Positions 35,629 through 54,067 of a stretch of 64,000 nucleotides of DNA are shown here, in pieces. The stretch spans positions 828-64,827 of the forward strand of contig DIDE01000061.1 of NCBI GenBank assembly GCA_002417975.1, written 5' to 3'. Source of the stretch: Eggerthellaceae bacterium UBA5808 (GTDB taxonomy: Bacteria > Actinomycetota > Coriobacteriia > Coriobacteriales > Eggerthellaceae). The position numbers and the translations under genes were made by a program. Positions within the stretch are counted from its first letter, which is position 1. Every line of letters starts with the position of its first letter. The notes under the pieces were generated by a model. That model was not told where the DNA came from and did not search any database. It saw only the letters and a program-made list of their open reading frames with translations.

Positions 35629-35934
35629 ATGAGGTACTGTCGAACATGCAATAAGTTAGCGATATTGGTTTTTATAACAATCCTCGTATTCGGTGCTATC
35701 CAGCTAATAGGTACTAATAGTGCATATGCAGATACAGCTGGAGCGGTATCTTGCCACGTTGATTCAAAAAGAGCTCCCGTCGGGAAGGTAACTGTTGATT
35801 ACGATGCGCCATCGGGAACATTAACATTTTCTGGCTCTGGAACAGTTGGTGGGTTAAGAAATAGATTTTACACTGATCAGCTACCTGATTCAGTAAATGC
35901 AGAGAAGATATTAGTTGACGTTAAAAAATTGTGA
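35629..35934 (+). CDS. Signal-peptide-bearing N-terminal fragment of the LRR surface protein (frame-disrupted at an A6 tract)
   Basis: MRYCRTCNKLAILVFITILVFGAIQLIGTNSAYA is a signal peptide. The ORF ends at TGA 35932-35934, immediately after AAAAAA at 35923-35928. Confidence 0.6.
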   Translation: MRYCRTCNKLAILVFITILVFGAIQLIGTNSAYADTAGAVSCHVDSKRAPVGKVTVDYDAPSGTLTFSGSGTVGGLRNRFYTDQLPDSVNAEKILVDVKKL

Positions 35935-38900: not shown

Positions 38901-39002
38901 TGGACACTCGTTCTCTTGTGTGCGGGATCTGCAGCTGCGGCAGTTGGATCGTCGCGCCGTCGTAAGGCTCATGTGGTTAATGAATTACATGTGCTGAAAT
39001 AA
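35931..39002 (+). CDS. BspA-type leucine-rich-repeat cell-surface protein, main body (no signal peptide of its own)
   Basis: Repeated ~22-aa LRR_5-like units (LTSITLPASLTSL, LTSLDIPDGVTSL, LTSLDIPASVASI). The C-terminus has NVKTGD, a hydrophobic segment and RRRK, which looks like a cell-wall sorting signal. Confidence 0.75.
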   Translation: MIQQGVTVKDPYFSKSITMYGAMFSNLKSIVVEDGAVVKDKKLKEYIANLSDSNVTDEQGITYKDSTKSKVISVVPTGSSIMLPSSVSSIAPDAFTQCTDSLISIRVSENNSNYKSVDGALFNSDGSLVYIPLGIQGSLNLPEGLTTIKAEDLQKRSGLTALTLPSSLTSIVCHGSDAGDLPFYQDSSLSNITVASTNTVYSAADGVLYEAGTAGTKVLDAVQNLPSVVEVPEGVTDLGIWVFSGKKGLTSITLPASLTSLSQDALYGCDQLTSIKFPDTIKSIALKGCSGLTSLDIPDGVTSLSIYDCPALTSLDIPASVASIPTLDHCAALKSITVADGGHFRFDDGVLYDSKDNIIFETKYPNGRDYVIFPKGTTTATLDANKCAKGDFYGNSFAACYSTLTTIVSNNPDYVVVDGVLFSSDMKQLIKAPTTLTGTYIVPDSVTSIAAFAFAGCTKVNAIVMPNAGIKNIGARAFSQVSLKSVQLPSTLWQGKKATDFIADAAQSCIYPLFSMADATYISLPSANDTSSPKVNHTLAALDFSLYTQTFLPNYMFSGLYGLTEISLPKNIMSIGNGTFFACPNLKNVYAFNQNLQIATAGETGDPTLGWVSSTPSSFSALNSKNLGEYATNTGMTFYGLNYTTNTTKTYADKYGCTFKPFAFLGNYSDSAKLAQKVEGGTSTLNYLTSSNTASIASMTYTGSELTPTITVDYAASSDPAVAQRTLSPGNDCTVVYKDSAGNAVSKIVNPGTYTATITGDEKSVFGTTTASFTVVGPAGTSVKMNDVSGTGITANGSLWGSNVDRKDASNIQLVVDPVTSGDAYNKLAKTLGDGDLLGMYNIFLMVNGTEVHDNFGTLTLSFPVDSTYNGRTVTIQHLHKDGSVTSQQSVVANGKVKIVASDLSDFSLEVMPASASTTPQAAGKGSGSTTTASGQTAGQQLAQTAAQQAQQTPQTAQTVAQGAGTTTQPAAATSQKSNVKTGDVASTFLWTLVLLCAGSAAAAVGSSRRRKAHVVNELHVLK

Positions 39003-39030
39003 CCAATCACGCATTAACTATGCATGCATG

Positions 39031-39062
39031 CCACAACGCGGGATTTACGTCTCGCGTTGTGG
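39031..39062 (+). terminator. Stable hairpin after the LRR gene (possible terminator/attenuator)
   Basis: CCACAACGCGGGA / TCTCGCGTTGTGG, a 13-bp stem with one G-U pair. No canonical T-run follows. Confidence 0.45.
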
Positions 39063-39117
39063 TGGGGTATGTGGTGCATCCTTCTAGCTTTGAAACCGAA
39101 AAATCGAGGTCTCTTTC

Positions 39118-40677
39118 ATGAATATACGTGCAGCTCGTGGCTTTAGAGCAGGTGTTTTATTCTGCTTGATGGCAGGGCTATGTATAGTTTCGATTTGTAT
39201 GCCTACTCAAGCATTTGCTGTAGTAAATCTGGGACAGGTTTCTATTTCGATGCCTGGGTATGCCTCGTTGACCGCAGGTGAAAGCGACACTATGTCGTGT
39301 GTGGTGTCGCCTATGTCGTCGTCGCAAATTCCAAACTGTGCAACTGATTATTGTCCAAGCGGATGCGAAGCGGTATCGGCAGGATGCCTGGATGCTTCTG
39401 GACAATGCACGTGCAACGGTGGCGGATACAGCACCTACTATTCTGCGGTAAACGTGTATTCAAGTAATCCCGGTGTCGCGCGCGCTTCATGGAATAACGG
39501 AACGTTATGCGTATCAACATATGCTGCTGGAACGGCTACGCTTACAGCGACTGCTTCGCTGCGTCTACATACTGACGCAACTGCATCTATGACGGTTGAC
39601 GTGGCGGAACCTGCAGCTGCGCCAGCGGCAAATGAAAATACCGTATCACCATCAGGTAATGCCACTGCAACAAACGAAACAGTTACGAGTGGTGGAGTAA
39701 CAAGTTCGCCAGTTTCTAGTAGTAGCGGCAGTGCGAATGTGTCAACAGGTGCTAATGCTGTTGTTGCTTCGATCGTTGGTAGTGCGGCGGGTATTGCGGT
39801 GGGCGACAACTCCGCATCGGGAGGACAGACGCTGGTAGCATCTCTTTCGGATGCGGATGTGTCGCCGAAAGATCTGATAGGTCAGGTTGCTGGTACCGCT
39901 GATCAAGTAATGTTTTGGGCGGGATCTGATGAAGCTGTTCCCGACTATATTTGGTATGCATCAGGAACCAAGATTACCGCAGCTCCAGAAAACGACGTGA
40001 ATCTGTCGGTTGTAGATGCAACGGCTTCGAATACGCAATTATCTGAATTGCTTAAAGGAAAAACGTACTGCTGCATGGATGCGAGTGCGTGTGGTATATT
40101 GCCAGGTCCTATGACGTTGCTGTGGCGAACGGCAAAAGTGTTTCCAAACGATACCTACGTAACGCTTTATTCCTACGACAGTTCAACGAACAAACTTACC
40201 CGCATCCAAAAAAATTTGCAGGCAAAGGATGGCTACGTTTCGTTTGAGGTGACCGAGGGTAAGGTATTTGTGCTGTCCGACGATCCTGATTTGGAATCGG
40301 CGGGAACGGTTGCCATGACTGATGTAGACACTATAGCTGATGATATGTCTGCGGAAGGAACAGGTTCTTCTGATAGTAATCAACCAAAGCAAACTACCCT
40401 GCTGCCTTGGGTTGTAGGCATAGGACTGGCAGTACTTATAGCCGCGATTGTATTTGGTATCTATCGTAAGCATCATCAAAAATCGGGCGAAACAAGCAAT
40501 GATGCTACATCGTCTTGTAATACTGCTGAAAGCAGAATAGACATAACAGAGGATAATAAGGTTGCAGACGGCAATACTAATGAAATCCTAGACGGATCAG
40601 CAGATACAACTCCTGATGAAACCGATGTTTCGCAAAGCTCCAAAGATGCACCGTCAACGATGAAAGGCGAAAAGTAA
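39118..40677 (+). CDS. Cys-rich Ig-like (Big_2-like) surface protein, C-terminal TM anchor (paralog 1)
   Basis: Signal peptide, 6-Cys module CATDYCPSGCEAVSAGCLDASGQCTC, SSNPGVARASWNNGTL...GTATLTATASL, and TM segment LLPWVVGIGLAVLIAAIVFGIY. Confidence 0.7.
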   Translation: MNIRAARGFRAGVLFCLMAGLCIVSICMPTQAFAVVNLGQVSISMPGYASLTAGESDTMSCVVSPMSSSQIPNCATDYCPSGCEAVSAGCLDASGQCTCNGGGYSTYYSAVNVYSSNPGVARASWNNGTLCVSTYAAGTATLTATASLRLHTDATASMTVDVAEPAAAPAANENTVSPSGNATATNETVTSGGVTSSPVSSSSGSANVSTGANAVVASIVGSAAGIAVGDNSASGGQTLVASLSDADVSPKDLIGQVAGTADQVMFWAGSDEAVPDYIWYASGTKITAAPENDVNLSVVDATASNTQLSELLKGKTYCCMDASACGILPGPMTLLWRTAKVFPNDTYVTLYSYDSSTNKLTRIQKNLQAKDGYVSFEVTEGKVFVLSDDPDLESAGTVAMTDVDTIADDMSAEGTGSSDSNQPKQTTLLPWVVGIGLAVLIAAIVFGIYRKHHQKSGETSNDATSSCNTAESRIDITEDNKVADGNTNEILDGSADTTPDETDVSQSSKDAPSTMKGEK

Positions 40678-42449
40678 TGAAAGTGAACGTATTAGGTCAC
40701 CGTAGAGCGGCCTTGTTTATGTTGTCTGCACTACTGGTAGTTGCGATGGCTTGTGTGGCGATGCCATCATCTGCATGGGCATACTATTCGTTGTCGCCAG
40801 TGGAAATTTACTTAGGTAGCAATTCGATATCCATGGGTGCTGGAGAATCTGCCAGCATTGGATGCGGACTCAGTATTGCCAGTGAAGAGCAAACAGTCGG
40901 CTGTGGTATGGCTGAATGTCCTCAAGGTTGCGGTGATTTAACGACACCTCAGGGAGTAAAAGGCGGATGTGCCGATGTAAATGGCTGGTGTACTTGTATG
41001 GGCACGGCGTATTCCGCATATGGCACAAATGTTGCTGTGTATTCTGATAATCCAGGTGTCGCGCGTGCAAGCTATAGCAATGGCGTTTTGAATGTAACAA
41101 GTTATGGTGCGGGATCGGCAACACTCACGGTGAGCGCTACACTGCAGCAACACAATGATGCTGCTGCGTACGTAACGGTAGATGTTTCTGACAATAATGC
41201 ATCGTCTGGTGGCTCAGGCAATTCGGGTGGCTCGGGCTCATATTCAGGTGGATCCACGACGGTTGTTCCCACAGATTCAGTTTCGGGTGGATCGGGTGCG
41301 GCGGCTTCTAATGGTGCCTCATCAGGTGCGGTTGCTGTAAATCCTTCGGGGTCTGTTGCCGTGTCTGCCACGGGCGTGCCAGCTGCTGCTGCGGCAGTTG
41401 CTGCTACAGACGAAAAGAATGAGAAAGTAGTAGAAGCCGCTGATGGTACAAAGGCGCTGATTGTCCAGGCAAACGCAGCGGCAAATTGTGCCGAAGAACT
41501 TTCCCAAATTGCCGGTACCGAGGGAACATGCACATTCTGGACGGGTGCGAGTTCCGACAAGCCTGATATTTCTTGGACTTTTAAAGGAACCGATTTGGAC
41601 CCTGACGGAGATCTGAATATGGATCTGGGCGTAACGGTATCAGAAAAAGGTACCGGCACGGTGGCGGATGTGCTTGCAAACGCAAAGGATTCGCTCGTTA
41701 TGGATTGGCAGCAGGAAGGACCGCTGCCTGGTAAGGCGAGCGTATATGTGCGCACCGCAGGCAAATATGCTGATGGCACGACGTTGTCGTTGTTCTGCTT
41801 TAACAAAGATACGGGTAAGTTTGAGCTGCAGAAAAGTGGCATAACTGTCACAAGCGGGTATGCATCATTCGACATGGATCATTGCAGTACATGGGCGCTT
41901 TCCACCGATGATCTGACTAAATATTCAGCCTCTACGTTGGATTCGTCGAATGCAGGCGATCAAAAAGATTCAGTACTAGAAGATATCGCACACGTTAATA
42001 CCGAAGGTGCAACGGATGGGCTACCTGTTGCTGCCATTGTTGCTCTTATTATCGCTGCGCTCGCGGTAATAGCTATCATCATCGCTGTTGTGCTGCGCAA
42101 GCGTAATGCGCGTGCCATCGAGCCCGATACATTGAGTGATACAACCGATGATGCTGCTGTAGTCGATAGTAAAGCGGCCGTATCCGATACCGATGCCGAT
42201 ATGATCGATAGTGCTGATGCTGATAGTGATGTCGATGGAGAAGCTAGTTCGTTAACTGAGGGTGCCGATAGCGATTTATCCGCTGATAGTGAAATTGCGG
42301 ACGAATCTGAAGATCAAACTAAAGCTGAATCTGCCGGTACATCCGAAGACGAATTCGAACCTGAAGACAAACCTGAATCAGATGATACATCCAAGGATGA
42401 ATCTGATGAGAGCGCAGCAACCGATGTCGCAAAGGACGACAAAGCATAA
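40677..42449 (+). CDS. Cys-rich Ig-like surface protein, TM anchor plus acidic tail (paralog 2)
   Basis: CGMAECPQGCGDLTTPQGVKGGCADVNGWCTC and SDNPGVARASYSNGVL...GSATLTVSATL. The start overlaps the previous stop (TAATG). Confidence 0.7.
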   Translation: MKVNVLGHRRAALFMLSALLVVAMACVAMPSSAWAYYSLSPVEIYLGSNSISMGAGESASIGCGLSIASEEQTVGCGMAECPQGCGDLTTPQGVKGGCADVNGWCTCMGTAYSAYGTNVAVYSDNPGVARASYSNGVLNVTSYGAGSATLTVSATLQQHNDAAAYVTVDVSDNNASSGGSGNSGGSGSYSGGSTTVVPTDSVSGGSGAAASNGASSGAVAVNPSGSVAVSATGVPAAAAAVAATDEKNEKVVEAADGTKALIVQANAAANCAEELSQIAGTEGTCTFWTGASSDKPDISWTFKGTDLDPDGDLNMDLGVTVSEKGTGTVADVLANAKDSLVMDWQQEGPLPGKASVYVRTAGKYADGTTLSLFCFNKDTGKFELQKSGITVTSGYASFDMDHCSTWALSTDDLTKYSASTLDSSNAGDQKDSVLEDIAHVNTEGATDGLPVAAIVALIIAALAVIAIIIAVVLRKRNARAIEPDTLSDTTDDAAVVDSKAAVSDTDADMIDSADADSDVDGEASSLTEGADSDLSADSEIADESEDQTKAESAGTSEDEFEPEDKPESDDTSKDESDESAATDVAKDDKA

Positions 42450-42466
42450 TCGAAATACACGGAAGG

Positions 42467-43156
42467 GTGGGGACTTTGAATAGGTGCATTTCTTATACAC
42501 GCAGACGCGCGCAGCTTTTGCTGCGATGCGTCGCGGTGTGTCTTGTTATGGTCTGGGCGATTGCGAGCCCCACCTCGTCAATCGCTTGGGCCGCCACAAA
42601 AATAGTGGGTGATCTATCTCTTGATGCGCCCGAGCATATAGATCTTGCATGCATCGATATGATTGCATTGCCGGTGAACACCGATCCTGATTCCATCCAG
42701 ACAGGTGTCCCTTGCGGGATGCTTGAGATGTGTGGTCAGGATCCGTGTTTATGCGGCTCAGTTGATAGCTATGGCGCGTGTGCATGTAATGGGCTGCAGA
42801 CGACAAAACCCGATATCAAAGCAGTGTCGGATGATCAATCCCTTGTACATATTGTGCAAGTTTTCGGAAAGCCTTACCTAGTAGTAACAGGGACAGGTTC
42901 AACAACTATTCACGTTGATGCTTCGCTTATTCATTACAATTCCGCATCATGTGATATTCAAGTACAGACGGCGGCGTTTTCTCCGTTTGATATGGCAAAG
43001 ATACTTGTTGCTTTAGGGGTGCTGGCCGTCGCTGTCTTTCTGGCGATTACCCTTATTCGTCTTGTGATGCATGTATTTAAAAAGGTAACAACATCGATCG
43101 TGCGTCACTCGCGCGCACGCGGTGATACGAACAAAGAAAGATTGGATAGGAAATGA
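42467..43156 (+). CDS. Short Cys-rich Ig-like membrane-anchored protein (paralog 3)
   Basis: PCGMLEMCGQDPCLCGSVDSYGACAC, ...GTGSTTIHVDASL and a C-terminal TM segment. TTG at 42476 is better spaced from the GGAAGG RBS than GTG at 42467. Confidence 0.65.
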   Translation: MGTLNRCISYTRRRAQLLLRCVAVCLVMVWAIASPTSSIAWAATKIVGDLSLDAPEHIDLACIDMIALPVNTDPDSIQTGVPCGMLEMCGQDPCLCGSVDSYGACACNGLQTTKPDIKAVSDDQSLVHIVQVFGKPYLVVTGTGSTTIHVDASLIHYNSASCDIQVQTAAFSPFDMAKILVALGVLAVAVFLAITLIRLVMHVFKKVTTSIVRHSRARGDTNKERLDRK

Positions 43157-43590
43157 AAAAGAAAAAGTGGGACGTTATTTCGATCGTGCTCGTCGTTCTA
43201 TCTTTGGTGGCGACAATTTGCGCGTTTGCTTTAGGTGGATGCAGTACCTGTGTGGAAACCGCAGCTGGTGGCTGCGTTCCTATGAAATGTCATTGGACAT
43301 TTATAGCTGTTGGGCTCATTCAGATTATGGCTATTGCGGCAGCAGGCATGGGATTTACGACGCCGGGTGTACACGGTAGACGGGTATGTACCGCAATGGT
43401 TGTTTTGGTAAACGTAATTGGGCTGTTTGCATTTTACGGACCGCTTATGGGATTGTGCACTAACGCCGATATGCCATGTCATATGCATGCGCTTGTGGTC
43501 AGTGTGCTGCAAATTATTTCATTGGTCGTAGCGATTTATGCGTTCTTCGCGTGCAGCCCCTCTCAGAAAAAACCTAAAAAGGAAATGTAG
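43153..43590 (+). CDS. DUF4418-like small Cys/His-rich membrane protein
   Basis: 145 aa, about 4 TM segments, with CSTCVETAAGGCVPMKCHWT and MPCHMH. ATGA overlap with the upstream stop. Precedes an FtsX permease, as is typical for the family. Confidence 0.6.
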   Translation: MKKKKWDVISIVLVVLSLVATICAFALGGCSTCVETAAGGCVPMKCHWTFIAVGLIQIMAIAAAGMGFTTPGVHGRRVCTAMVVLVNVIGLFAFYGPLMGLCTNADMPCHMHALVVSVLQIISLVVAIYAFFACSPSQKKPKKEM

Positions 43591-43596
43591 GATCTT

Positions 43597-44838
43597 ATGT
43601 TCGAGCTGATCAAACATAGTTTAGGGATGCGTACAACTCAGTCGATCGCCACGCTCGTCACTGTGGCTCTCACCGTGGCGGTGCTGATGGCACTGGCGTT
43701 GACGTCCATTGGAGTTACGCAAGGTATACAAAAAAGTCAGCAACGCTACGGTGCAGACTTGATGGTGATACCGGCGGACGCCGCCTCGAGTTTGGACGAA
43801 ACATCCTTTTTGTTTACTGGCAGTCCCGTGGGTATGTATATGTCTGCATCCGTGCAGGATCAGGTTGCAGCTACCGAAGGTGTGGGTGCTACGACCGCGC
43901 AGTTCTTTGGGCAAACGCTTAACGCCAGCTGTTGTTCGGCATCGTCTCCTTCGCGTTTGATTGGCTACGATGCTCAAAGCGATTGGGTCATAAGTCCGTG
44001 GACCGATCTAGCTAAAGGGCAAAAGCTTGAAGAAGGACAAATCATAATAGGGTCCAATTTAGCAGGGGATTTTCCTAACAAACAAGGTAAGGTGCTGGGG
44101 CATCCCGTTACTGTGGCATCGGTGATGGATCAGACGGGAACCGATTTAGATGGATCGATTCTTATGGATATTGACACCGTGCGTGCTTACACGGCAGCAA
44201 CTGATAATTTTGCTGACACATGGGAACGCTACGGCGATCCATCTACGTTGGTGTCGAGTGTAATGGTAAAAGTTGACGATTCCTACGTTGCGGGCACATG
44301 TGGTGGATCGCGTGAAGATGCTATCGCTGCGGTGGCGGAACACCTGTCCCATATAGATGGTGTAAGTGTTATCCAAAGCAGCAAAGTGATTGATCAGGTG
44401 CAAGGAAACTTAACCTCGATGTTTACCATCATGGCAGGCGCGGCGCTCCTTTTAGCTATCGCATCGATCGTGCAGATATTTACACGCTTTTACACCGTTG
44501 CCTGGGATAGGCGTGCAGAGATTGCATTGTATCGTGCGGTTGGCGCTTCCAAACGTGATATTCGGACACTTATTGGCGGCGAGGCAGCAGTACTTATTGG
44601 TGGCGGACTTGTAGCCGGTTGTGTCTTGGGCGTAGGCATATATCTGCTGGTGCCGTCGCTGTTGGCAAGTAGCGGATCGTTTCCTTATTTGGCGCCTGGA
44701 CCACTTGCGTGGGTTGGTGTGATTTTGAGACTAGCTATGTTGTTTGCTGTTGTTGGCATGCTAGCCGTGATAGTTCCTGTTCGTCGTGCAAATCGTATCG
44801 ATCCATCTGCAGCAATGCAGATGGGCGACATAGATTGA
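43597..44838 (+). CDS. MacB/FtsX-family ABC transporter permease
   Basis: 413 aa: an N-terminal TM segment, a large extracytoplasmic domain, then a C-terminal 3-TM FtsX domain (YRAVGASKRDI...). Confidence 0.8.
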   Translation: MFELIKHSLGMRTTQSIATLVTVALTVAVLMALALTSIGVTQGIQKSQQRYGADLMVIPADAASSLDETSFLFTGSPVGMYMSASVQDQVAATEGVGATTAQFFGQTLNASCCSASSPSRLIGYDAQSDWVISPWTDLAKGQKLEEGQIIIGSNLAGDFPNKQGKVLGHPVTVASVMDQTGTDLDGSILMDIDTVRAYTAATDNFADTWERYGDPSTLVSSVMVKVDDSYVAGTCGGSREDAIAAVAEHLSHIDGVSVIQSSKVIDQVQGNLTSMFTIMAGAALLLAIASIVQIFTRFYTVAWDRRAEIALYRAVGASKRDIRTLIGGEAAVLIGGGLVAGCVLGVGIYLLVPSLLASSGSFPYLAPGPLAWVGVILRLAMLFAVVGMLAVIVPVRRANRIDPSAAMQMGDID

Positions 44839-44849
44839 GAAGGTGCTTC

Positions 44850-45557
44850 ATGCTACTCGAATGTGACAAGGTTAGTAAAACGTACGACGGTCAGACGGTT
44901 TTAGTTCGTATAGATATGCAGGTTAATGCTGGAGAATCCGTTGCGCTTGTCGGCGCATCGGGTGAGGGAAAATCTACGCTTCTTTCCATTGCGGGTTTGC
45001 TGTTGGCGCCGAGCGCGGGACGTGTGACGGTGGATGGAAAAGGCATCGAGCGTCTCAATGATGTGGAACTATCAGCATTGCGTGCTCAGGCGTTTGGCTT
45101 TGTATTCCAACATAACCAACTTATTGGATCGTTGCGAGCTTTGGACAATGTGCTGGTGCCATCGTGCTTTGCGTATCAAGGTGATTGCCAAAAGCGTGCG
45201 TTGGCATTGATGAAGGAATTCGGTTTAGAGGACCGTCTATGGCACTACCCACATCAGCTTTCGGTAGGACAAAAGCGGCGCGTGGCGTTGGCGCGTGCGA
45301 TGTTGCTTTCGCCCAAGATAATCATTGCCGATGAGCCGACTAATGATCTTGATCCAGTAACGGGGCGTGTGGTCATTAATGAACTTTTGAATTATCCGGA
45401 CAAAAAGCATGCGGTGATCTACGCCACTCACGATATGGCGATGGCACGTCGTGCGGATCGAATACTCCATTTACATAATGGCAAGATCGAGCAGATTTCC
45501 GAAGATCAACTGGCCCATGTGTTTGAGTGTGAAGAAAAGGAGGAGGCCGGAGCATGA
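44850..45557 (+). CDS. ABC transporter ATP-binding protein (MacB/LolD-type)
   Basis: Walker A GASGEGKSTLL, signature LSVGQKRRVALARA and Walker B IIADEPTNDLD. ATG at 44850; the upstream part of the ORF overlaps the permease. Confidence 0.9.
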   Translation: MLLECDKVSKTYDGQTVLVRIDMQVNAGESVALVGASGEGKSTLLSIAGLLLAPSAGRVTVDGKGIERLNDVELSALRAQAFGFVFQHNQLIGSLRALDNVLVPSCFAYQGDCQKRALALMKEFGLEDRLWHYPHQLSVGQKRRVALARAMLLSPKIIIADEPTNDLDPVTGRVVINELLNYPDKKHAVIYATHDMAMARRADRILHLHNGKIEQISEDQLAHVFECEEKEEAGA

Positions 45558-46288
45558 TTGATATTCGTAATGTGACCAAGCGCTATGGCAAGTTCACCGC
45601 AATTCATGACATTAGTCTTAAAGCTGATGATTCCAGCGTGTATGGTTTGGTTGGATACAACGGGGCGGGCAAGACAACCTTACTTAAAACCGTTGCAGGA
45701 GTATATTTACCCGACGAAGGCGAAGTACTTGTGGACGGAACGAGTGCACATGTCGGGCGTACACCCGAGAGAACACCGTTTATTGTGGCTGATGAACCGT
45801 TCTTTTTGCCGCAAGCAACGCCGGATTCTATGCGCAGCTTTTATGCGGGATATTATCCTGATTGGTCGGATGCTACCTACGAGAATCTTATGAAACTGTT
45901 TGGGCTTGATAGGCGTGCGCGCATATCGGGATATTCAAAAGGAATGCAGCGCCAGACGGCTATATTGCTTGGTTTGTCGACCGGCGCAAAGTCGTTGTTG
46001 CTGGATGAAAGTTTTGATGGACTCGATTTATCCAAGCGTATTTTACTCAAACGGTTGCTGCGTAAATATGCAGAAGTACGCGGTGCCGCGGTGATTTTGT
46101 CATCGCATAATCTGCGCGAATTAGAAGATGTGGCCGATCGCATCGGTATGATCGAAGATCGGCAATTGGTTTTTGACGAGACCGTCGATGATCTTCATGC
46201 AAACAATCCAGGTCGCACGCTCGAGCAAATATTCCTCGACGAAAGAGAGGTGGGCGACCTTGACATCGACTCGATTTTCATCTGGTAA
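45554..46288 (+). CDS. ABC transporter ATP-binding protein (ABC-2 type)
   Basis: Walker A GYNGAGKTTLL, signature YSKGMQRQ and Walker B LLLDESFDGLD. ATGA overlap with the upstream stop. Confidence 0.9.
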   Translation: MIDIRNVTKRYGKFTAIHDISLKADDSSVYGLVGYNGAGKTTLLKTVAGVYLPDEGEVLVDGTSAHVGRTPERTPFIVADEPFFLPQATPDSMRSFYAGYYPDWSDATYENLMKLFGLDRRARISGYSKGMQRQTAILLGLSTGAKSLLLDESFDGLDLSKRILLKRLLRKYAEVRGAAVILSSHNLRELEDVADRIGMIEDRQLVFDETVDDLHANNPGRTLEQIFLDEREVGDLDIDSIFIW

Positions 46289-48803
46289 ACGTAAGCGCGG
46301 TGGGCTTTCGAAGCCGCAAGATATAGAAGCAGAAGAAGAGCTTTGCGAACAAGATGCTACTACGGCGAAAGAGGAGAAGCCTGCTGCTGCGTCAGGGACT
46401 GCACGTAAAAGCGGATCGCCGGTTGCGTCTGTTACAAATAAGAAATCTGTCTCTAGCTTAAGCGGTAAGACTTCCAAGAAAGCTGCCGCAAAACTAACCA
46501 AGACTTCCAAGAAACTTACCAGTGTTCCCAAGGCGGTGCAGCCCGCACCTCGGCGTAAAGGGACGCGTAGCAATTCATCGCTTACAAGGCACGATTTTGG
46601 TGTGGCGTTTCGCATGGTGCTGCCTGTACTGATTGCAGCGTTGGCTGTGTTTATCGTCTTAATGCCGGTATCCACTGCAGCTATTCCTGATACGTCAGTT
46701 TTTAACTTGGACTATACACACGACCAGCTTAAATGGCGTTTTTGGGCGACCGATATGTTATATCCGGTTTACGCTTGTACAGTGTTGTTCGGCATAGTAC
46801 TTGGTGTACGTAGTTTTAGCTTCCTGTTGGTAAAATGCCAGACGACAACCTTTTTAAGTTTGCCACTTAGTCGCCTAACACTTTTTTCAACGCGTGCTGC
46901 TGCATGTTTACTGTCGTTGATCGTTGGCATTGGTGTGCCATTGGCGATTTCGCTGGCGGTAAATGTTGCAGCGCTGGGTGTGTGGCCAGGAATCTTTGGT
47001 GATTTTTTCTATGTGTTCGCTGGGCTCGTACTAACGGGCGCGGTGGCTTGCATCGCAAGTATTTTGTGCTGCACGTTGGCGGGTACCGTAGTGGAAGCAT
47101 GCGCATTTACGATAGCGTTACTTGGAGTAGTGAGCGTCGGCGCTTGGGGATTAAATGCGCTGATGGATTACTTGCTCGTAGGCAATGCATTTGGAGAATT
47201 TTTATACAACGGCACTACCTCAGTTGCGCCAACGCTTTTGGAATCGACCGAATCGTTTAATCCGCTGCTGTTCTTCTTGGGACAGGCGTCTGCCCATTCG
47301 ACCTTTATGGTTCAGCATCCCGTGTATTATCCAACGGATGGTAATTGGGCGTTCCTTGGTGCGTGGCTGCTCGTTTTGCTCGTGGTTGCAGCGCTGAGTG
47401 CGTATGCGCTTATTCGTCGCAAAGGCGAACGTGCAGGTGTTGCGGGGCTGTGCATACCCATGACTTTTTTGGTGGGGCTGGTTGTAGGATTGGCAGCATT
47501 TGGTGCTACGTTTACCGCGTTAGCGCAGGTAAATGTCGTTGCCGCATGTGTGGCTGCCTTCGGAGCATTTTTGGTAGTGTCGGCGATTTTATTCCGCGGG
47601 CCACTTAAAGGTGTGACGCATCTGCGTACAACGCTTGGTGTAATGGGCGCAGAAGCGTGTTGCTTGGGTGCAGCGGTAGCTATTGTAGCAACGGGTGGAT
47701 TGGGCTATAGCTCGTATGTTCCCAATGATGATCAAGTTGCTTCTGTAGATGTGAGCTATGCGGGATCTCCTGACTATTTAGCGGTAAAGTTTGATTCTGC
47801 CTCGTCGGGGGCTGGATCGTACTACTATTCTGCGACGTATTCGCTTGACGATGCGACAAGCATTCATACAGTAACGGACGTCCATGGGCAGTTGGTACGT
47901 ACGGGAAAAGCTACGTGGAAACGTGACGCTAAAGATTTTGGCAACACCGTGGTTCCTTACGACGTTAAGATTAGCTACACCATGAAAGATGGATCGCAGG
48001 CAGTGCGCTACTTTGATTGCGCCACCTACGACGAACTCTATGCGTTAACGGGTTTGGATGACTCCAGCACCGTTAAAGAACTTGAGCGTGCGAGCGTGTC
48101 GAGCGATATAAGTAATGTAACGAGCGATCAGGCTTCGGCGTTGAACTATTCCAGCGCTCATCAGGCGTATCTTAATGGCACCGTATACTTGAGCGACCCA
48201 TATTATGCATCGTCAGTTAAGTTGTCATGTACGGCCGAGGCGCGGACGCAGTTATTGGCGGCGTTGGCCGAAGATGCGGCGAACCAAACGCGCGAAGATC
48301 GCTATCACCCATCGGGTGTTGCACGTGGCGTACTCATGTTTACGCAGGCAGGGGATACGGATGCACAGAGTTTTTCGTATTCGCTCTCGAACAATGTGAT
48401 CTATTTGACTGATCAATACACGCATACGCTCAAATGGATGGAAGACAATGGCGTTGCAAAGTATTTGTCGTCTGCTGATTCTTCGGTCATCGAAAGTCTG
48501 ACTTTCCAGCGCTACGATCCCTATTCGGGTATGAATGCGGTGAAGTCGCCCGAGAGTGTGCTATTTAAGGGATACCGGATGTCCAACAATTCTCACTATA
48601 TTGTTACGCAAGATTTCGGGACCAAATATTCTACGAACGATGCAAGCGAACTTGCCCAAATTGTGCCGCACTTGCGCAACACATACTTTATGAACACGGG
48701 CGGATATTTGGTGTGTGCAAAATTGGGCGGCGTGAATTCGTATGCGTACTTTTTCTTGCCTGACACTGATGTGCCTGAGTGGCTGTTGCGTGTGGCTGGA
48801 TAG
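46173..48803 (+). CDS. Large polytopic membrane protein with a Lys-rich N-terminal tail and a ~380-aa C-terminal extracytoplasmic domain (putative ABC-2 partner)
   Basis: 876-aa ORF with about 10 TM segments in the middle. The start is uncertain: candidates are ATG 46173/46188/46197 or TTG 46260, which has a GAGAGG RBS. Each candidate overlaps the upstream ATPase gene. Confidence 0.65.
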   Translation: MTRPSMIFMQTIQVARSSKYSSTKERWATLTSTRFSSGKRKRGGLSKPQDIEAEEELCEQDATTAKEEKPAAASGTARKSGSPVASVTNKKSVSSLSGKTSKKAAAKLTKTSKKLTSVPKAVQPAPRRKGTRSNSSLTRHDFGVAFRMVLPVLIAALAVFIVLMPVSTAAIPDTSVFNLDYTHDQLKWRFWATDMLYPVYACTVLFGIVLGVRSFSFLLVKCQTTTFLSLPLSRLTLFSTRAAACLLSLIVGIGVPLAISLAVNVAALGVWPGIFGDFFYVFAGLVLTGAVACIASILCCTLAGTVVEACAFTIALLGVVSVGAWGLNALMDYLLVGNAFGEFLYNGTTSVAPTLLESTESFNPLLFFLGQASAHSTFMVQHPVYYPTDGNWAFLGAWLLVLLVVAALSAYALIRRKGERAGVAGLCIPMTFLVGLVVGLAAFGATFTALAQVNVVAACVAAFGAFLVVSAILFRGPLKGVTHLRTTLGVMGAEACCLGAAVAIVATGGLGYSSYVPNDDQVASVDVSYAGSPDYLAVKFDSASSGAGSYYYSATYSLDDATSIHTVTDVHGQLVRTGKATWKRDAKDFGNTVVPYDVKISYTMKDGSQAVRYFDCATYDELYALTGLDDSSTVKELERASVSSDISNVTSDQASALNYSSAHQAYLNGTVYLSDPYYASSVKLSCTAEARTQLLAALAEDAANQTREDRYHPSGVARGVLMFTQAGDTDAQSFSYSLSNNVIYLTDQYTHTLKWMEDNGVAKYLSSADSSVIESLTFQRYDPYSGMNAVKSPESVLFKGYRMSNNSHYIVTQDFGTKYSTNDASELAQIVPHLRNTYFMNTGGYLVCAKLGGVNSYAYFFLPDTDVPEWLLRVAG

Positions 48804-48812
48804 AGGCAGACG

Positions 48813-49799
48813 ATGATTATAGACGAGAACATGAGTATAGATGCACGTGACAGCGTATGTGACAGCGTATGTGACAACGTAGGGAAAAGCCGTTGTCGGT
48901 TGGCTGGCGTTTGCATTGTGATCGCGGTTGCACTGTGTGTCTTGTGCAGCACGCTGTGCTGCGCGGGGTGCGGCGTTGCGACAGGAAAAGTGAGCGACGC
49001 GTCCCCTACCTGCGTTGATGCGCAGGTTACAAGTGGAAGCGATCTAACGGAGTCGGGTCAGTATGCAGAGGTCCGTTTAAAATTTGATGCACCAGTGAGC
49101 GCGGACAATGATGTGTCGAGTGATTTTACGGTAAGGCTTAACGATGCGCCGATTGATACAAAAACTATTGTTGAGTCAGCGCGCGTTGATAACGGAGACG
49201 TGGTAGTTCGTTTGCAGCCGAGCGATGCTGCTTCGGGTAAAGATTCGTCCGTATATTTTGCGCTCTATCAGGGGCAGCTTTCCGTTTGTGCATCCGACGC
49301 ATCGGGTGCGTTGCCTCATGTGCTAGCTGCTAACGGTGAGCAAGGGTCGAGTGCGGTATGTGCGCGCATGAATCAGCGCGTGAGCTTTACGGTTCCATCA
49401 GGTGTAGCAATTTCGGTGGTAGAACGTGTTCCTGGCGATGCGGCGAGTGGAACGTGCGCATGTACGGTGTGCAAGGTCGACCAATTTGCTCAGTTGCGTT
49501 GTGTTATGTGGTTGGGATTATCAACGAATGGTGATGTGCCGTGTAATGAATATGGTATGGCGGATTATGGTGCCGACGACATGGAAAATGGCACGCTGAC
49601 GTTTAAACATAACCATTTATTTATGCGTGATACACAACGTGAATGTGCAACTGACCTGGCTCAAGTTATTCAAAATGCATGGCCGGATACGGTAACCGCA
49701 ACATCTTCGGGAGATACGATCACGCTGACGGCAACGCATGCGGTGGATGGCGAAGTGCTAATGCCCGTTATATTCGAAGGGCGGTATGCCGATGAATAA
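48813..49799 (+). CDS. Putative lipoprotein/secreted protein, function unknown
   Basis: Hydrophobic signal ending LCCAGCG (lipobox-like). No recognised domain. The 3' end overlaps the FecCD permease start. Confidence 0.6.
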   Translation: MIIDENMSIDARDSVCDSVCDNVGKSRCRLAGVCIVIAVALCVLCSTLCCAGCGVATGKVSDASPTCVDAQVTSGSDLTESGQYAEVRLKFDAPVSADNDVSSDFTVRLNDAPIDTKTIVESARVDNGDVVVRLQPSDAASGKDSSVYFALYQGQLSVCASDASGALPHVLAANGEQGSSAVCARMNQRVSFTVPSGVAISVVERVPGDAASGTCACTVCKVDQFAQLRCVMWLGLSTNGDVPCNEYGMADYGADDMENGTLTFKHNHLFMRDTQRECATDLAQVIQNAWPDTVTATSSGDTITLTATHAVDGEVLMPVIFEGRYADE

Positions 49800-50838
49800 A
49801 CGGAGCGACAAGCAGATCGGCACTACGTCGTCTTGTTCGCGTAGTCGTCGAGGACGTAGCATTGCAATCATTGTCGGGTTGGCAGTGATTTTAGTCGTGG
49901 TGTTTTTGCTTTCGGTGAGCATAGGTCGCTATGGGATAGATTTGGGCGATCTTGCGGCAAGCCTTGGCGATAGTGAATGCGATGGGACATCGTTTAATGT
50001 GCTGTTTCATCTGCGCGGCCCTCGCGTGGTGGCTGCCGCAGCTATTGGTGCGATGCTTGCTTGTGCTGGCTGTGCCTATCAGGGATTATTCCGCAATCCG
50101 TTGGTATCACCAGATTTACTGGGTGCATCGGCTGGTGCATGTTTTGGCGCAGCTCTGGGCATATTGATGGGGCTGAGCGGATTTGGCATGCAAGTACTAG
50201 CGTTTGCGAGTGGCGTTGCGGCAGTTTCGCTGGCGTACGGGCTTTCTAAAAAATTGTCGAAAGCTATGAGCGGGGTACTGGTATTAGTACTGTGTGGCTT
50301 GGTTATTCAGAATTTGTTTACGGCGTTTACCTCTGCAATTAAGTTTATGGCAGACCCGAATTCTCAATTGCCCGAGATTACGTTTTGGCTGATGGGAGGA
50401 TTGGCAAACGTTCGCGAGGATGATTTGCTGTGGTTGGCGGTGCCTCTTGTAATTGGCTGCGGCGGAATGTTTGCCATGCGCTGGCGACTCAATGTGATGA
50501 GCTGCGGTGACGAGGAAGCGGCATCGTTGGGCGTGAATGTTAAGCGGACGCGGCTTGTTGTGGTGGCGTGTGCCACGTTGGCAACATCTGCAGCTGTATC
50601 TGTTGCTGGCATGGTGGGATGGGTCGGATTGATTATTCCTCATTTGGCGCGATTTTTGGTAGGACCTGACAATAGGTTTTTGGTTCCCGCGTCGTTTTTG
50701 CTCGGAGGATCATTTTTAGTTTTGGTAGATGACGTGTGCCGAAGTGTGTATACCACCGAGATCCCGCTTTCTATTTTGACGGCCATTATAGGTGCGCCCT
50801 TGTTTGTGTATCTGATTTATCACTCAAGGAGGCTTTAA
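49786..50838 (+). CDS. FecCD/BtuC-family ABC permease (iron-siderophore/cobalamin/heme type)
   Basis: 350 aa, about 10 TM segments, with PRVVAAAAIGAMLACAGCAYQGLFRNPLVSPDLLGASAGA, which is typical of FecCD permeases. Confidence 0.88.
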   Translation: MPMNKRSDKQIGTTSSCSRSRRGRSIAIIVGLAVILVVVFLLSVSIGRYGIDLGDLAASLGDSECDGTSFNVLFHLRGPRVVAAAAIGAMLACAGCAYQGLFRNPLVSPDLLGASAGACFGAALGILMGLSGFGMQVLAFASGVAAVSLAYGLSKKLSKAMSGVLVLVLCGLVIQNLFTAFTSAIKFMADPNSQLPEITFWLMGGLANVREDDLLWLAVPLVIGCGGMFAMRWRLNVMSCGDEEAASLGVNVKRTRLVVVACATLATSAAVSVAGMVGWVGLIIPHLARFLVGPDNRFLVPASFLLGGSFLVLVDDVCRSVYTTEIPLSILTAIIGAPLFVYLIYHSRRL

Positions 50839-50839
50839 C

Positions 50840-51805
50840 ATGCCTACCATTGATGCGTTTAAAAAACCAGTTTTGAATGTTAACCATTTAGCCTGCGGAT
50901 ACGATGGACGTGCCGTTGTTACAGACGTCACGTTTAGCGTACAGGCGGGCGAAGTGCTGACCATCTTGGGCCCTAATGGTGTTGGCAAAACGACGCTGTT
51001 CAAAACGCTGCTGGGATTTATGCCTGCGCTATCGGGTGAGATGAGACTCTGCGGCGAGGATGTGTCCGATTGGACGCGTAAACGATTTGCTTCGGTAGTT
51101 GCGTATATTCCGCAGCAGCATAATCCTGCGTTTCCGTTTAGCGTGTCCGAGTTTGTGCTGATGGGACGGACGCCTTCGATAGGGACACTGTCGACGCCCG
51201 ATGCTCACGATGCACAGATTGCGCATGAAGCGTTAGTACGATTAGGAATTGAATCGTTGAGCGAGCGTGATTATACGTCGCTTTCGGGTGGCGAACGGCA
51301 GATGGTACTTATTGCGCGTGCTCTTGCGCAACAGCCGCAGGTGTTAGTGATGGACGAACCGTGTGCCAGCTTGGACTATGGCAATCAGGTTCGTTTGCTT
51401 GAACAGGTGATTGATCTAACACATGACGGATTGTCTGTAGTGATGACGACACATGATCCAAACCATGCATTTATGGTGGGCGGCAAGGTTTTTTGTATGG
51501 GGCGATCGGAGCATTTTACCTACGGTGCGGTGAGTGACGTTTTGAATGAACGTACGTTGCAAGATTTGTATGGCGTCGAAGTGGGCATTGCTCCGGCTAC
51601 GGCTTCGGATGGAACCGTGGTGAATGGCTGTATCCCGTTTTTGGGGAGCGCCGCACGCAGGGAAGCTGGACGTGGAAGTGTAGTTGAGGCTACAAGCGTG
51701 TCGCCGAATGTGCATACGGCGATTGCTACAGATAAGTCGAATGCTGTAGATAAGTCGAATGCTACAGATAAGCCGAATGATCGTCGATTTCGAAAGGCTC
51801 TGTAA
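50840..51805 (+). CDS. ABC ATP-binding protein (FepC/BtuD type) with a repeat-containing C-terminal tail
   Basis: Walker A GPNGVGKTTLF, signature LSGGERQMVLIARAL and Walker B LVMDEPCASLD. The tail carries DKSNA repeats. Confidence 0.9.
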   Translation: MPTIDAFKKPVLNVNHLACGYDGRAVVTDVTFSVQAGEVLTILGPNGVGKTTLFKTLLGFMPALSGEMRLCGEDVSDWTRKRFASVVAYIPQQHNPAFPFSVSEFVLMGRTPSIGTLSTPDAHDAQIAHEALVRLGIESLSERDYTSLSGGERQMVLIARALAQQPQVLVMDEPCASLDYGNQVRLLEQVIDLTHDGLSVVMTTHDPNHAFMVGGKVFCMGRSEHFTYGAVSDVLNERTLQDLYGVEVGIAPATASDGTVVNGCIPFLGSAARREAGRGSVVEATSVSPNVHTAIATDKSNAVDKSNATDKPNDRRFRKAL

Positions 51806-52995
51806 TGGACAACAATAAACACTATGCCATTCAATCGATGACGCGCCGGCAGTTTGCGCGCGCGACAACAAAAGGTCTTGCGGTTTGTATAGGCGCTGTT
51901 GCAAGTGGTGGTGCGTTGCAGTTGCTTTCGGGATGCACGCTCAAGCCTGGCAAACATGGGGAATTGCGTCATGTGGACGATATGCTGGGGCGCGATGTGT
52001 CGGTACCTGTTCGCGTTGATACCGTGTTCTGCTCTAATCCTATTGGCACGGTTGATCTGTATATTCTTGCGCCTGAACATCTTTCGGGATGGAATTTTAG
52101 GCCATCGGGCGACAATAAAAAATATATCAAAGACGAATACATGGCGTTGTCTTCGTTAGGCGTGTGGATGGGTGCTGGCACAACGCCAAATGACGAGGAG
52201 ATTGTTAAGCAGAATCCTGATGTGATCTTGTGCTATTGGACTGCTGATGATGTTGGGTATGAGATGGCGGAAAACGTGCAGGATGAAACAGGTGTTGGCA
52301 CGCTGGCTATCGATTACGATTTGCGATCGGCTCCAGACATGTTCCGCTATGTTGCATCGTTACTCGGAGTAGAGGAGCGAGGCGAGACTATCGCGTCGTT
52401 CTGCGAGCAGAAGCTTGCTCGTATTAGTGCGATTGCGGCAACAATTCCTGAGGCGGAACGCAAATCAATTTATTTGGCTCAGGGAGAAGGCGGACTTTCT
52501 ACTGATCCGGTGGGATCGATGCATGTGACCGATGCACTGGAATTAATTGGTGTGCGCAACGTTGCCGATTTGCCTGGTACGCAGGGCAAAGGTATGGGTA
52601 TGCCAACGGTGAATCTGGAACAGATTATCAACTGGAAACCCGATGCGGTGTTGGCGAGCGAATACAGCATGAGTGATGCAGAGAGTTCGGATCTTTACGA
52701 TGAAATATTGACGGACGCTAATTGGCGCAATGTTCCCTGCGTAAAAAGTGGTGCGGTGTATCGTATTCCGCAGTCGCCATTTTCGTGGTTTGGGCGTCCG
52801 CCATCGGTTATGCGTGTGTTGGGATGCTTGTGGCTGCTTAAGATTCTCTACCCTGAATACACCCAAGACGTAAACATGGTGCAGGAAACGCGCGAGACAT
52901 ATGACCTGTTCTACGATATCCAACTGACGCAGACGCAATTGAACAATATCCTGACTACGGCGGGCATTGATCCCGAGACTGGGCAGGTGAAGTAA
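51805..52995 (+). CDS. Substrate-binding lipoprotein (BtuF/FhuD-type periplasmic binding protein) with a Tat-like signal
   Basis: TRRQFARATTKG...LLSGC gives a twin-arginine motif plus a lipobox. Last gene of the importer; TAATG overlap with the ATPase stop. Confidence 0.8.
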   Translation: MDNNKHYAIQSMTRRQFARATTKGLAVCIGAVASGGALQLLSGCTLKPGKHGELRHVDDMLGRDVSVPVRVDTVFCSNPIGTVDLYILAPEHLSGWNFRPSGDNKKYIKDEYMALSSLGVWMGAGTTPNDEEIVKQNPDVILCYWTADDVGYEMAENVQDETGVGTLAIDYDLRSAPDMFRYVASLLGVEERGETIASFCEQKLARISAIAATIPEAERKSIYLAQGEGGLSTDPVGSMHVTDALELIGVRNVADLPGTQGKGMGMPTVNLEQIINWKPDAVLASEYSMSDAESSDLYDEILTDANWRNVPCVKSGAVYRIPQSPFSWFGRPPSVMRVLGCLWLLKILYPEYTQDVNMVQETRETYDLFYDIQLTQTQLNNILTTAGIDPETGQVK

Positions 52996-53020: not shown

Positions 53021-54067
53021 TTAGTCGTTTAGCTTTTTCGCTAAAGAATGAAGTTTGTTTCTATTAGTTGGAAGCCAATTTGAATAAACGAAAATAATTG
53101 CATCTTTCTCAGTGATTTTCTGATACTTTTGTTTTTCTAATCCTTTAGGTGGTTGTTTACGTAGAAGCGGATGGTCTATGCCTAACCTTTTCTGAGACCA
53201 CTGCGTATTGAATAAACATTTAGTATCAATTGTCGAATTAATGAGTTGCCTAATGTCGCTATGATCGTTACAGGTGAATCTATTAGTGTATTTGTTACTA
53301 TTGGTATTTTTATTTTCCGCTGAATTGGATGAATGATTTATTTCATCATCGTTCTTAACTGCGCAGGGAAGTATAGTGCCAAGGACGGAATCTAGGCAAT
53401 TTGACGAAGGTGTAAGAACACCAACTCCTGAATTATATTGTTGCGGGTGTTCGGTTGCCCATATTGAGCGTTCAACTGTTTGGCAGTACTGTTCTGTTTC
53501 CCTGCCGCAAAAGAGCCACACGGATTTTATTTGTTCGTCTGGATTTAACGCTGCAATGTCAGATTTATATTTAAGAATCGACTCTCCTAATCTTCCCTGT
53601 GGAAACCTTCTGCATAGCGAGTCCCCTCTACTGAACTTTGCATCGAAAATAAAATTATGTTTTGTGCCCAGCGCATCGCGGACTGATAAAAGATAATCAG
53701 GAGTCCAATACGATGGCTTGTGATACTGAATACTTTTTTGAGAAGCAGATAAGCGATGAAGTGCGATATCATATTCTTCTGTTTCGTCACCGTAAATAAC
53801 CGGTTGATAATAGAGACACACATGTGTGTTCTTCGAACATAAATGGTAAACCGTGGCAACTTGGTCTTCATTTTTAAAATATGGATTCTTAAGGCTGTAA
53901 TGTGCTTTTATGATTGGCTGTTTGTAGCGCATGTCCTCATGAAAATCATGTAGATTAAGCCATAATAGCAATTTGTAGAGTACATAGTATTCATAGAGTT
54001 TATCGGTTCTAAATAGATGCAACGATAAGTTTTCATTTTCGAGCGTGGAATCACCAAAAAAATCCAA
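53021..54067 (-). CDS. McrC-like nuclease, C-terminal fragment (PD-(D/E)xK core); frame-disrupted
   Basis: KLYEYYVLYKLL then YWTPDYLL...HNFIFDAKFS (D...DxK nuclease motif). The ORF-track start is a TTG with no RBS. Overlaps the upstream fragment out of frame by 160 nt. Confidence 0.65.
   Translation of the reverse strand: MDFFGDSTLENENLSLHLFRTDKLYEYYVLYKLLLWLNLHDFHEDMRYKQPIIKAHYSLKNPYFKNEDQVATVYHLCSKNTHVCLYYQPVIYGDETEEYDIALHRLSASQKSIQYHKPSYWTPDYLLSVRDALGTKHNFIFDAKFSRGDSLCRRFPQGRLGESILKYKSDIAALNPDEQIKSVWLFCGRETEQYCQTVERSIWATEHPQQYNSGVGVLTPSSNCLDSVLGTILPCAVKNDDEINHSSNSAENKNTNSNKYTNRFTCNDHSDIRQLINSTIDTKCLFNTQWSQKRLGIDHPLLRKQPPKGLEKQKYQKITEKDAIIFVYSNWLPTNRNKLHSLAKKLND

Follow-up and report, generated by a model that had tools for sequence, protein, structure and literature searches.

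Six-cysteine Ig-like surface proteins recur with an ATPase-permease pair and a type II ABC importer in anaerobic bacteria

Introduction

What does a bacterium gain from holding cysteine-rich surface proteins and ATP-binding cassette (ABC) transporters in a single string of genes? The question is raised by a block of twelve genes, here g1 to g12, in a 64,000-nt stretch of contig DIDE01000061.1 from Eggerthellaceae bacterium UBA5808 (the window, meaning the whole stretch analysed). The original prediction, drawn from the window's letters, read the block as surface capture plus import. The part of this idea that joins the six-cysteine (6-Cys) proteins to a FecCD-type importer stands, recurring in two phyla, but the partners and boundaries assigned to the system need correcting. 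Because the FecCD link recurs in two phyla and the capture-type proteins match no curated binding domain, a reading as surface proteins, lipoprotein and type II importer is reasonable. We tentatively propose that the block may be the Coriobacteriia form of a widespread envelope system of anaerobes, which would capture a cargo, probably a metal, and hand it off into a type II importer. Trace-metal acquisition by strict anaerobes in the sulfidic gut, rumen and termite hindgut is poorly understood.

Results

The twelve-gene block

All twelve genes in 39118-52995 are co-directional, as had been predicted.

39118-40677, + strand: g1, 519-aa type-I membrane protein with a 6-Cys insert
40677-42449, + strand: g2, 590-aa paralog of g1
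42467-43156, + strand: g3, 229-aa short 6-Cys paralog
43153-43590, + strand: g4, DUF4418 protein with four transmembrane (TM) helices
43597-44838, + strand: g5, MacB-type permease (MacB_PCD + FtsX)
44850-45557, + strand: g6, ABC ATPase of the MacB/LolD class
45554-46288, + strand: g7, ABC ATPase, best matches among DrrA/ABC-2-class ATPases
46260-48803, + strand: g8, 847-aa polytopic permease of an uncurated family
48813-49799, + strand: g9, 328-aa lipoprotein of an uncurated family
49792-50838, + strand: g10, FecCD/BtuC-type permease of a type II ABC importer
50840-51805, + strand: g11, importer ATPase
51805-52995, + strand: g12, Peripla_BP_2 substrate-binding protein with a twin-arginine translocation (Tat) signal and a lipobox

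Read from g1 to g12, the junctions measure -1, +17, -4, +6, +11, -4, -29, +9, -8, +1 and -1 nt, when starts are placed where public gene calls on this contig also place them. The TAATG overlaps described at 40677 and 51805 and the ATGA overlaps at 43153 and 45554 are exact. Two longer overlaps that had been reported are present too, but their size hinges on the choice of start (29 nt at 46260 and 8 nt at 49792 in the public calls), and the remaining gaps, given as 12 nt or less, are so except for the 17 nt between g2 and g3. Promoter-like and terminator-like sites within the block show no excess over shuffled sequence, and its 3′ end meets a convergent gene at 53021. The G+C content is 0.498 in the block, 0.427 further upstream and 0.386 downstream, a contrast that may reflect acquisition or an effect of protein composition. 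Neither Pfam nor NCBIfam has a family that matches the products of g1, g2, g3, g8 or g9, which public records label hypothetical. For several of the encoded proteins, near-identical members of the same 90%-identity cluster are annotated as products of Eggerthellaceae metagenome-assembled genomes.

A large family of 6-Cys Ig-like domains

The first three proteins are paralogous, as proposed. The comparison of g1 with g2 gives E 6e-50, that of g2 with g3 2e-4 and that of g1 with g3 0.03; given the last two values, we treat g3 as a distant member with a different Cys spacing. Each of the three begins with a signal peptide and an N-terminal domain of ~130 aa and ends with a TM anchor followed by a cytoplasmic tail; LPXTG is absent from all of them. 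In g1 the N-terminal immunoglobulin (Ig)-like domain, whose 6-Cys insert reads C-x4-C-x3-C-x6-C-x6-C-x-C, is joined through a low-complexity linker to a second conserved domain, and the TM helix spans residues 428-446. The g2 protein bears the family-typical motif GCGMAECPQGCG...GGCADVNGWCTC, and its TM helix (454-472) leads into an acidic cytoplasmic tail; its second domain has no significant match in PDB sequence and profile searches. One Ig-like domain and a TM anchor make up g3, whose cysteines are spaced C-x5-C-x4-C-x-C-x8-C-x-C and which falls in a separate subfamily of about 200 aa. All three Cys strings quoted in the original prediction are found in the sequences.

The description of an Ig domain resembling Big_2 and interrupted by a 6-Cys module appears correct, and it would apply to the whole family. 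An AlphaFold2 model of the g2 domain from a 27-row alignment has an overall predicted local distance difference test score (pLDDT) of 85.8, with the sandwich above 90 and the Cys insert at 57-69; the single-sequence model (pLDDT 46.7) was unusable. Foldseek matches the g2 model to S-layer Ig domains and to the lambda gpV Ig domain (E about 2e-3, TM-score about 0.5). Weak matches to Big_2 (PF02368) come from 18 of 27 family members, the best at 1.9e-6. Full-length g1-g3 give no Big_2 Pfam match, and the isolated g2 domain hits aBig_2 weakly (E 0.028).

When a profile of the three window domains was searched against 1.84 billion representatives, 370 proteins were recovered at E<=1e-3 and 255 at E<=1e-10. 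Among the top 150 matches, 144 hold one full-length domain, and none of these 144 has fewer than six cysteines. In the automatic alignment of the domains, four Cys columns are 100% invariant. The spacing C-x4-C-x3-C-xn-C-x6-C-x-C, typically QLPGCGMAECPQxCG...GC.D..G.CTC.G, accounts for 113 domains, and the g3-like spacing for 31. Judged by sequence, then, the 6-Cys insert defines a large uncurated family. A word-indexed homolog search with the g2 domain found no match, and one with a 27-sequence profile recovered the g3-like short subfamily alone; because such searches missed the bulk of the family, an exhaustive profile search was needed to reveal it. Scans of g1-g3 and of family members bear out the earlier impression that these capture-type proteins contain neither NEAT nor any other curated binding domain.

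Conserved partners of the 6-Cys genes

A scan at one genome per species with the 6-Cys subfamily alignment yielded 51 loci, and the twelve window proteins were searched against all open reading frames (ORFs) of these loci. They span Coriobacteriia, Lachnospiraceae, Anaerovoracaceae, Oscillospiraceae and Peptococcaceae, and the carriers include Eggerthella sinensis (Coriobacteriia), Acetitomaculum ruminis (Lachnospiraceae) and Formimonas warabiya (Peptococcaceae). Both g7 and g8 lie beside the 6-Cys gene in 44 of the 51 loci, or 44 of the 45 evaluable; six of the seven loci without them are contigs that end at the 6-Cys gene. FecCD is found in 33/51 loci, and in 29/35 among those of at least 14 kb. 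A g12-like binding protein is present in 29/51, a count that omits loci whose fetched stretch stops before the binding-protein gene (L005-L007, for example). The g9-family lipoprotein occurs in 33/51 and in Firmicutes usually lies directly upstream of the 6-Cys gene. Each system has one to four 6-Cys Ig-like proteins, anchored in the membrane.

It had been suggested that the 6-Cys paralogs might always travel with both DUF4418-FtsX and the FecCD importer. The second association is borne out by the long loci in two phyla, but the first is not, FtsX being found in 5/51 loci. Not DUF4418-FtsX but the ATPase-permease pair g7/g8 is the obligate companion of the 6-Cys gene. The conserved core is made up of the 6-Cys Ig proteins, the g9-type lipoprotein with its HxH motif, the g7/g8 pair, and the FecCD permease together with an ATPase and a binding protein. 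Literature searches with DUF4418, DUF364, ModD, PDB codes, and Eggerthellaceae together with FecCD returned no description of such a system.

The g7/g8 pair and the g9 lipoprotein

The original prediction called g7 and g8 an ABC-2-like pair. This fits the ATPase, which resembles the DrrA/ABC-2 class, but not the permease, which has no ABC2_membrane support from Pfam; ABC2_membrane_2 is touched by one of 20 g8 orthologs (E 0.05). In g8 a low-complexity N-terminal stretch leads into a membrane part (residues 119-477) with about 9-10 TM helices, and a non-membrane domain of ~370 aa forms the C-terminus; across the loci the permease measures 740-850 aa. No Pfam family was matched by 20 orthologs, and sequence and profile searches found no significant PDB relative. 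In locus L035 there are two copies of the g8 permease gene with an own 6-Cys gene before each, which suggests that the 6-Cys and g8 families pair one-to-one.

Members of the g9 family carry a lipobox and invariant PSG, R..W and HxH-x-F motifs, the HxH of g9 itself being HNH at residue 266. Here too a scan of 20 orthologs gave no Pfam family and no significant PDB relative was found, nor did the C-terminal part of a Lachnospiraceae g9-like protein match the PDB significantly.

The importer

The assignment of g10-g12 to a BtuCDF/FecCD-type importer is well supported (FecCD E 6.1e-84, ABC_tran 2.2e-31, and Peripla_BP_2 2.6e-17 at 63.4 bits against a cut-off of 27.5). The g12 protein is, as described, a Tat lipoprotein, with a TRRQF Tat motif and an LLSGC lipobox. 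Among solved structures it is closest to 4pag (5e-37) and 4ovk, which are structural-genomics entries without ligand; MolA, TM0189 and YiuA come next. The match to MolA 3psa is partial (6.7e-13), and those to IsdE are weak and partial. In the Olsenella-type contigs L058 and L059 the binding protein comes directly after FecCD, with no importer ATPase gene between or after; the importer of these contigs may borrow another ATPase.

The DUF4418-FtsX-ATPase triad

The MacB/FtsX pump is present as predicted: g5 exceeds the cut-off for both FtsX (54.5 bits) and MacB_PCD (32 bits) and has four TM helices, and the best matches of the g6 ATPase are LolD and MacB. Against DUF4418 (PF14387), g4 scores 35.5 bits (cut-off 27) over profile positions 3-116 of 117. 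The invariant motifs of this family, CxxCxETAAGxCxPMKCHW and CxxxxMxCH, are in two loops predicted by the positive-inside rule to face outward, in agreement with the Cys/His-rich extracytoplasmic face that had been proposed. A g5-like FtsX occurs in L005, L006, L007, L013 and L019, with a DUF4418 ORF over threshold in L005-L007, and the full DUF4418-FtsX-ABC triad is also in the further Coriobacteriia contigs L058-L060, L062 and L064. In L056 and L057, DUF4418-FtsX-ABC genes lie beside DUF3641 (ArsS-like) radical S-adenosylmethionine (SAM), rhodanese, CMD, more radical SAM and methyltransferase genes. The DUF4418 homolog of this neighbourhood, which may be a cluster for sulfur, selenium or arsenic handling, is more distant from g4. 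Because so few of the 51 loci hold the triad and it also stands in an unrelated neighbourhood, we regard it as a portable, lineage-specific accessory module. The one paper found for DUF4418 mentions it a single time, and no function is reported for its pairing with FtsX and an ATPase.

Upstream extension of the block

In Coriobacteriia the conserved block likely starts at 34655, about 4.5 kb before 39118. The features concerned are:

34655-35551, + strand: secreted 298-aa paralog of the g9 family (hhalign 98.3%, E 1.7e-14)
35584-39002, + strand: BspA-type LRR_5 surface protein with a C-terminal TM anchor, and a preceding 116-aa ORF
39029-39064, + strand: strong hairpin without a U tract, in the gap between the leucine-rich repeat (LRR) gene and g1
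32847-34373, - strand: membrane-bound LuxR/GerE-type regulator, divergent from the gene at 34655

The HSH of the protein at 34655-35551 aligns with the HxH motif of the g9 family. All Coriobacteriia loci examined have a g9 paralog of this type and the LRR_5 gene ahead of the 6-Cys genes, with the LRR gene directly upstream of them, and this order mirrors that of Firmicutes, where a g9-like gene leads into the 6-Cys gene. Firmicutes versions lack the LRR gene and keep the importer. A stretch of 116 nt separates the LRR gene from g1 and folds strongly (dG -40.2 kcal/mol, z -3.8); related loci have a hairpin at the equivalent place. The LRR_5 ORF itself (35931-39002) has no signal peptide of its own, and the 116-aa ORF, which has one, overlaps it by 4 nt beside an A6 run at 35923-35928. 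Together they may represent one gene that is split or prone to frameshifting; comparison with full-length relatives lent no support to a single frameshifted gene.

A 280-nt AT-rich region lies upstream of 34655. The LuxR/GerE-type protein is a candidate regulator by position alone, and GerE genes also flank L060 and L062.

Neighbours and clues to the cargo

Several features outside the core bear on what the system might carry. The ModD family (TIGR01334) was identified at 187.7 bits against the curated NCBIfam cut-off of 178.85. ModD lies within 10 kb of the cluster in eight loci (L005-L007, L009, L010, L018, L022 and L047), directly inside or adjoining the gene string in L009, L010, L022 and L047, and in eight other loci, all in Firmicutes, DUF364 follows the importer; one or the other is thus beside or near the cluster in 16/51 loci. 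The window has its own DUF364 gene:

29632-30516, - strand: DUF4213/DUF364 gene ('putative heavy-metal chelation'), adjoining a tRNA at 29293-29365

What is known of ModD and DUF364 comes chiefly from gene neighbourhoods for the transport of molybdate or other metals (PMC2954201; bioRxiv 10.1101/2024.03.05.583561). In Methanococcus, DUF364 is co-fit with modABC (bioRxiv 10.1101/2024.03.05.583561), and PMC2954201 connects it with metal-transport neighbourhoods. Real CopZ-like HMA genes are near the cluster in L005 and L060 only; an apparent 'HMA family' in seven loci consisted mostly of antisense shadow ORFs of ModD.

Three families hold invariant residues of the ligand type in predicted extracellular positions, namely six Cys and a Met in g1-g3, HxH in g9 and its paralog, and CxxC...C...CH and C...CH in DUF4418. 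The carriers are all obligate anaerobes, judged by taxonomy. Exported cysteines are generally rare in obligate anaerobes and are often unpaired.

Remaining flanks of the window

The rest of the window is made up of other kinds of genes. A chromosomal replication-origin neighbourhood occupies 2424-17080, with gyrB, recF, dnaN and dnaA on the - strand and yidC, rsmG, parA and parB on the + strand. At 23641-27975 (+), in a locally G+C-rich stretch (0.50-0.52), a 1444-aa protein is encoded whose sole domain is a C-terminal M28 peptidase. Downstream of the block, 53021-63374 contains McrBC-like restriction genes (PDDEXK_7, DUF2357, AAA; - strand) and then the type I-E CRISPR-Cas genes cas3, cse1 and cse2 (+ strand).

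Discussion

Gene order, paralogy, folds, domain memberships, invariant residues and co-occurrence are established directly by these analyses, and from them we infer cargo binding, the direction of flow, the role of g7/g8 and the identity of the cargo. In the mechanism that we propose, the thiolate-rich and histidine-bearing surface proteins would catch a cargo in short supply on the outside of the membrane, a metal ion or small metal complex being the likeliest. The g7/g8 machine, with its large and outward-facing g8 domain, would spend ATP on loading, release or hand-off at the outer face, and g12 would deliver the cargo to the FecCD permease g10 and its ATPase g11 for import. The portable triad g4-g6 would be an accessory added in this lineage, and may do a related outward-face job on thiophilic species. 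We favour a metal or metal complex because ligand-type residues recur in three families, the carriers are strict anaerobes and metal-associated neighbours are frequent. Going by the neighbourhood hints, our guess for the leading candidate would be molybdenum (Mo) or tungsten (W).

A bolder version would have thiolate-rich Ig receptors and the HxH lipoprotein, served by their own ABC motor, capture a sulfide-associated metal such as thiomolybdate, thiotungstate or aqueous Fe-S and pass it to the type II importer; we think it rather unlikely in this form. Such metal species, on that doubtful footing, would lie beyond the reach of ordinary oxyanion or siderophore systems. It would likewise be a long, though not extravagant, step to see here an unrecognised machine common to anaerobic Actinomycetota and Clostridia.

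Several observations weigh against capture and import of a metal. The roles given to g8 and g9 are guesses because neither has Pfam or PDB relatives. The Cys insert is modelled with moderate confidence only (pLDDT 57-69), and its six invariant cysteines are as compatible with three disulfides as with a structural Zn2Cys6-type cluster. At the Rfam gathering score, neither the window nor 21 related loci yielded a relevant riboswitch, cobalamin and molybdenum cofactor (Moco) classes included. A crude consensus scan of 16 upstream and two window regions gave no consistent match to Fur/Zur/PerR/IdeR-like boxes, and no k-mer is shared upstream of 16 clusters. The G+C content of the block (0.498) differs from that of its syntenic upstream partners (0.429). 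As for the neighbours, we know of no proven function of ModD or DUF364 in Mo/W handling; ModD is missing from the window, and the DUF364 gene found there stands 8.6 kb ahead of g1 on the opposite strand. The sole characterised DUF364 enzyme is a SAM cyclase (PMC12930334).

Two other explanations account for part of the same evidence, and we judge each of them improbable. If the Cys-rich proteins mopped up a toxic thiophilic metal or metalloid, g5/g6 and g7/g8 could expel it and the FecCD importer would have a separate job. Such detoxification or sequestration would suit the likeness of g6 and g7 to exporter-class ATPases (MacB/LolD and DrrA), the occurrence of DUF4418-FtsX-ABC beside ArsS-like radical SAM, rhodanese and methyltransferase genes, and the CopZ-like HMA genes near the cluster in L005 and L060. 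An unrelated importer is hard to explain, however, because it is retained with 6-Cys and g7/g8 across two phyla, often in the same gene string. The neighbour genes scanned also included no ArsR/MerR/CsoR-type metal-resistance regulator.

The 6-Cys proteins could instead belong to a surface structure, an account to which we give an equally small chance. On this view g1-g3 would act, like the LRR protein, as adhesins or in association with the wall, and the Cys insert would have a purely structural part to play, through disulfides or structural zinc. The insertion, maturation or retention of these proteins would fall to g7/g8, and the link to the importer would amount to shared regulation only. 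The Ig-fold matches to S-layer and phage domains, the adhesin-like BspA-type LRR gene always upstream in Coriobacteriia, the pairing of every 6-Cys gene with a g8 copy in L035 and the modest model confidence for the insert would all agree with this. Yet the Firmicutes versions keep the importer without any LRR gene, and the invariant HxH lipoprotein and the importer make up the constant core. The six cysteines are, moreover, invariant in all domains recovered, all of which come from obligate-anaerobe taxa.

Tetrapyrrole acquisition seems to us still less probable. The surface proteins would then catch heme or a corrinoid for a BtuCDF/IsdEF-like importer, and the DUF4418-FtsX-ATPase triad would clear membrane excess in the manner of HrtBA, a MacB-type protein and known heme-efflux analog. 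The importer class does include BtuCD, IsdEF/HmuUV-type heme importers and Fhu-type systems, g12 has its weak partial IsdE matches, and some carriers are acetogen-like or organohalide-type corrinoid users (Acetitomaculum, Formimonas). However, nothing specific favours the heme or corrinoid cargo that the original prediction had in view: no cobalamin riboswitch was found in the window or the 21 loci, no NEAT or other heme-binding domain was matched, and the best solved relatives of g12 are neither BtuF nor IsdE. Cys-only modules are atypical as tetrapyrrole-capture sites, and the ModD and DUF364 neighbours point elsewhere. Finally, an accidental juxtaposition of independent transport units that merely resemble one operon, for which one could cite the demonstrably portable DUF4418-FtsX-ABC triad, the hairpin that parts the LRR gene from g1 and the G+C difference from the flanks, is very hard to credit because of the conserved co-occurrence, with the same gene set in largely the same order in dozens of species of two phyla and every junction at 17 nt or less.

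Capture and hand-off into a type II importer thus remains the explanation that we prefer. The cluster links three sizeable unannotated families to a known importer class in many gut species, cultured ones included, and is a candidate for a new acquisition route that is testable in several cultured carriers, among them Eggerthella sinensis DSM 16107, Acetitomaculum ruminis DSM 5522, Lentihominibacter hominis and Olsenella phocaeensis. Even with an ordinary cargo there would be new biology in the 6-Cys Ig domain, the HxH lipoprotein and g7/g8 as constant partners of a type II importer. The 6-Cys, g8 and g9 families are also useful as annotation targets.

Comparison with known systems

The importer class itself is already known; what would be new is a version of receptor-assisted ABC import built from three unannotated families. 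Like BtuCD-F, FhuBCD, MolBC-A and IsdEF, g10-g12 are clear members of the type II ABC importers. The known ones are without the three uncurated families that constantly accompany g10-g12, and g12 is closest to unliganded structural-genomics entries. In Gram-positive species, which lack outer-membrane receptors, the Isd heme relay runs from NEAT receptors to IsdE and IsdF, and it shares with the present system the combination of beta-sandwich surface proteins, a lipoprotein and a FecCD permease. It differs in that the system described here has no NEAT domain and no LPXTG/sortase signal, with TM anchors instead, and in its Cys-rich insert, its extra obligate ATPase/permease pair and its strict-anaerobe carriers.

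The g5/g6 pair resembles the MacB/FtsX type VII ABC systems (MacB, LolCDE, HrtBA) in its MacB_PCD and FtsX domains and its MacB/LolD-class ATPase, but is always paired with a 4-TM DUF4418 protein bearing invariant Cys/His loops. The 6-Cys domains are like Big_2 Ig-like domains in fold and in weak profile matches; they differ by an insert of 30-45 residues with six invariant Cys between strands, and the domains of the window fall below the Pfam threshold. With ModD- and DUF364-associated metal transport neighbourhoods the system has in common the 16/51 loci and the DUF364 gene in the window, whereas neither gene is within the 12-gene block here.

For g7, g8 and g9 a working analogy may be NosDFYL, in which an ABC-2-type motor is combined with an outward-facing partner and a lipoprotein metallochaperone. 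By that analogy an exporter-class ATPase and permease, with a metal-ligand lipoprotein, would act on extracytoplasmic clients. There is no NosD-like protein and no N2O reductase here, and the likeness is drawn from how the parts would work, not from sequence. The g8 permease, which has an outward-facing domain of its own, also exceeds NosY by far in size.

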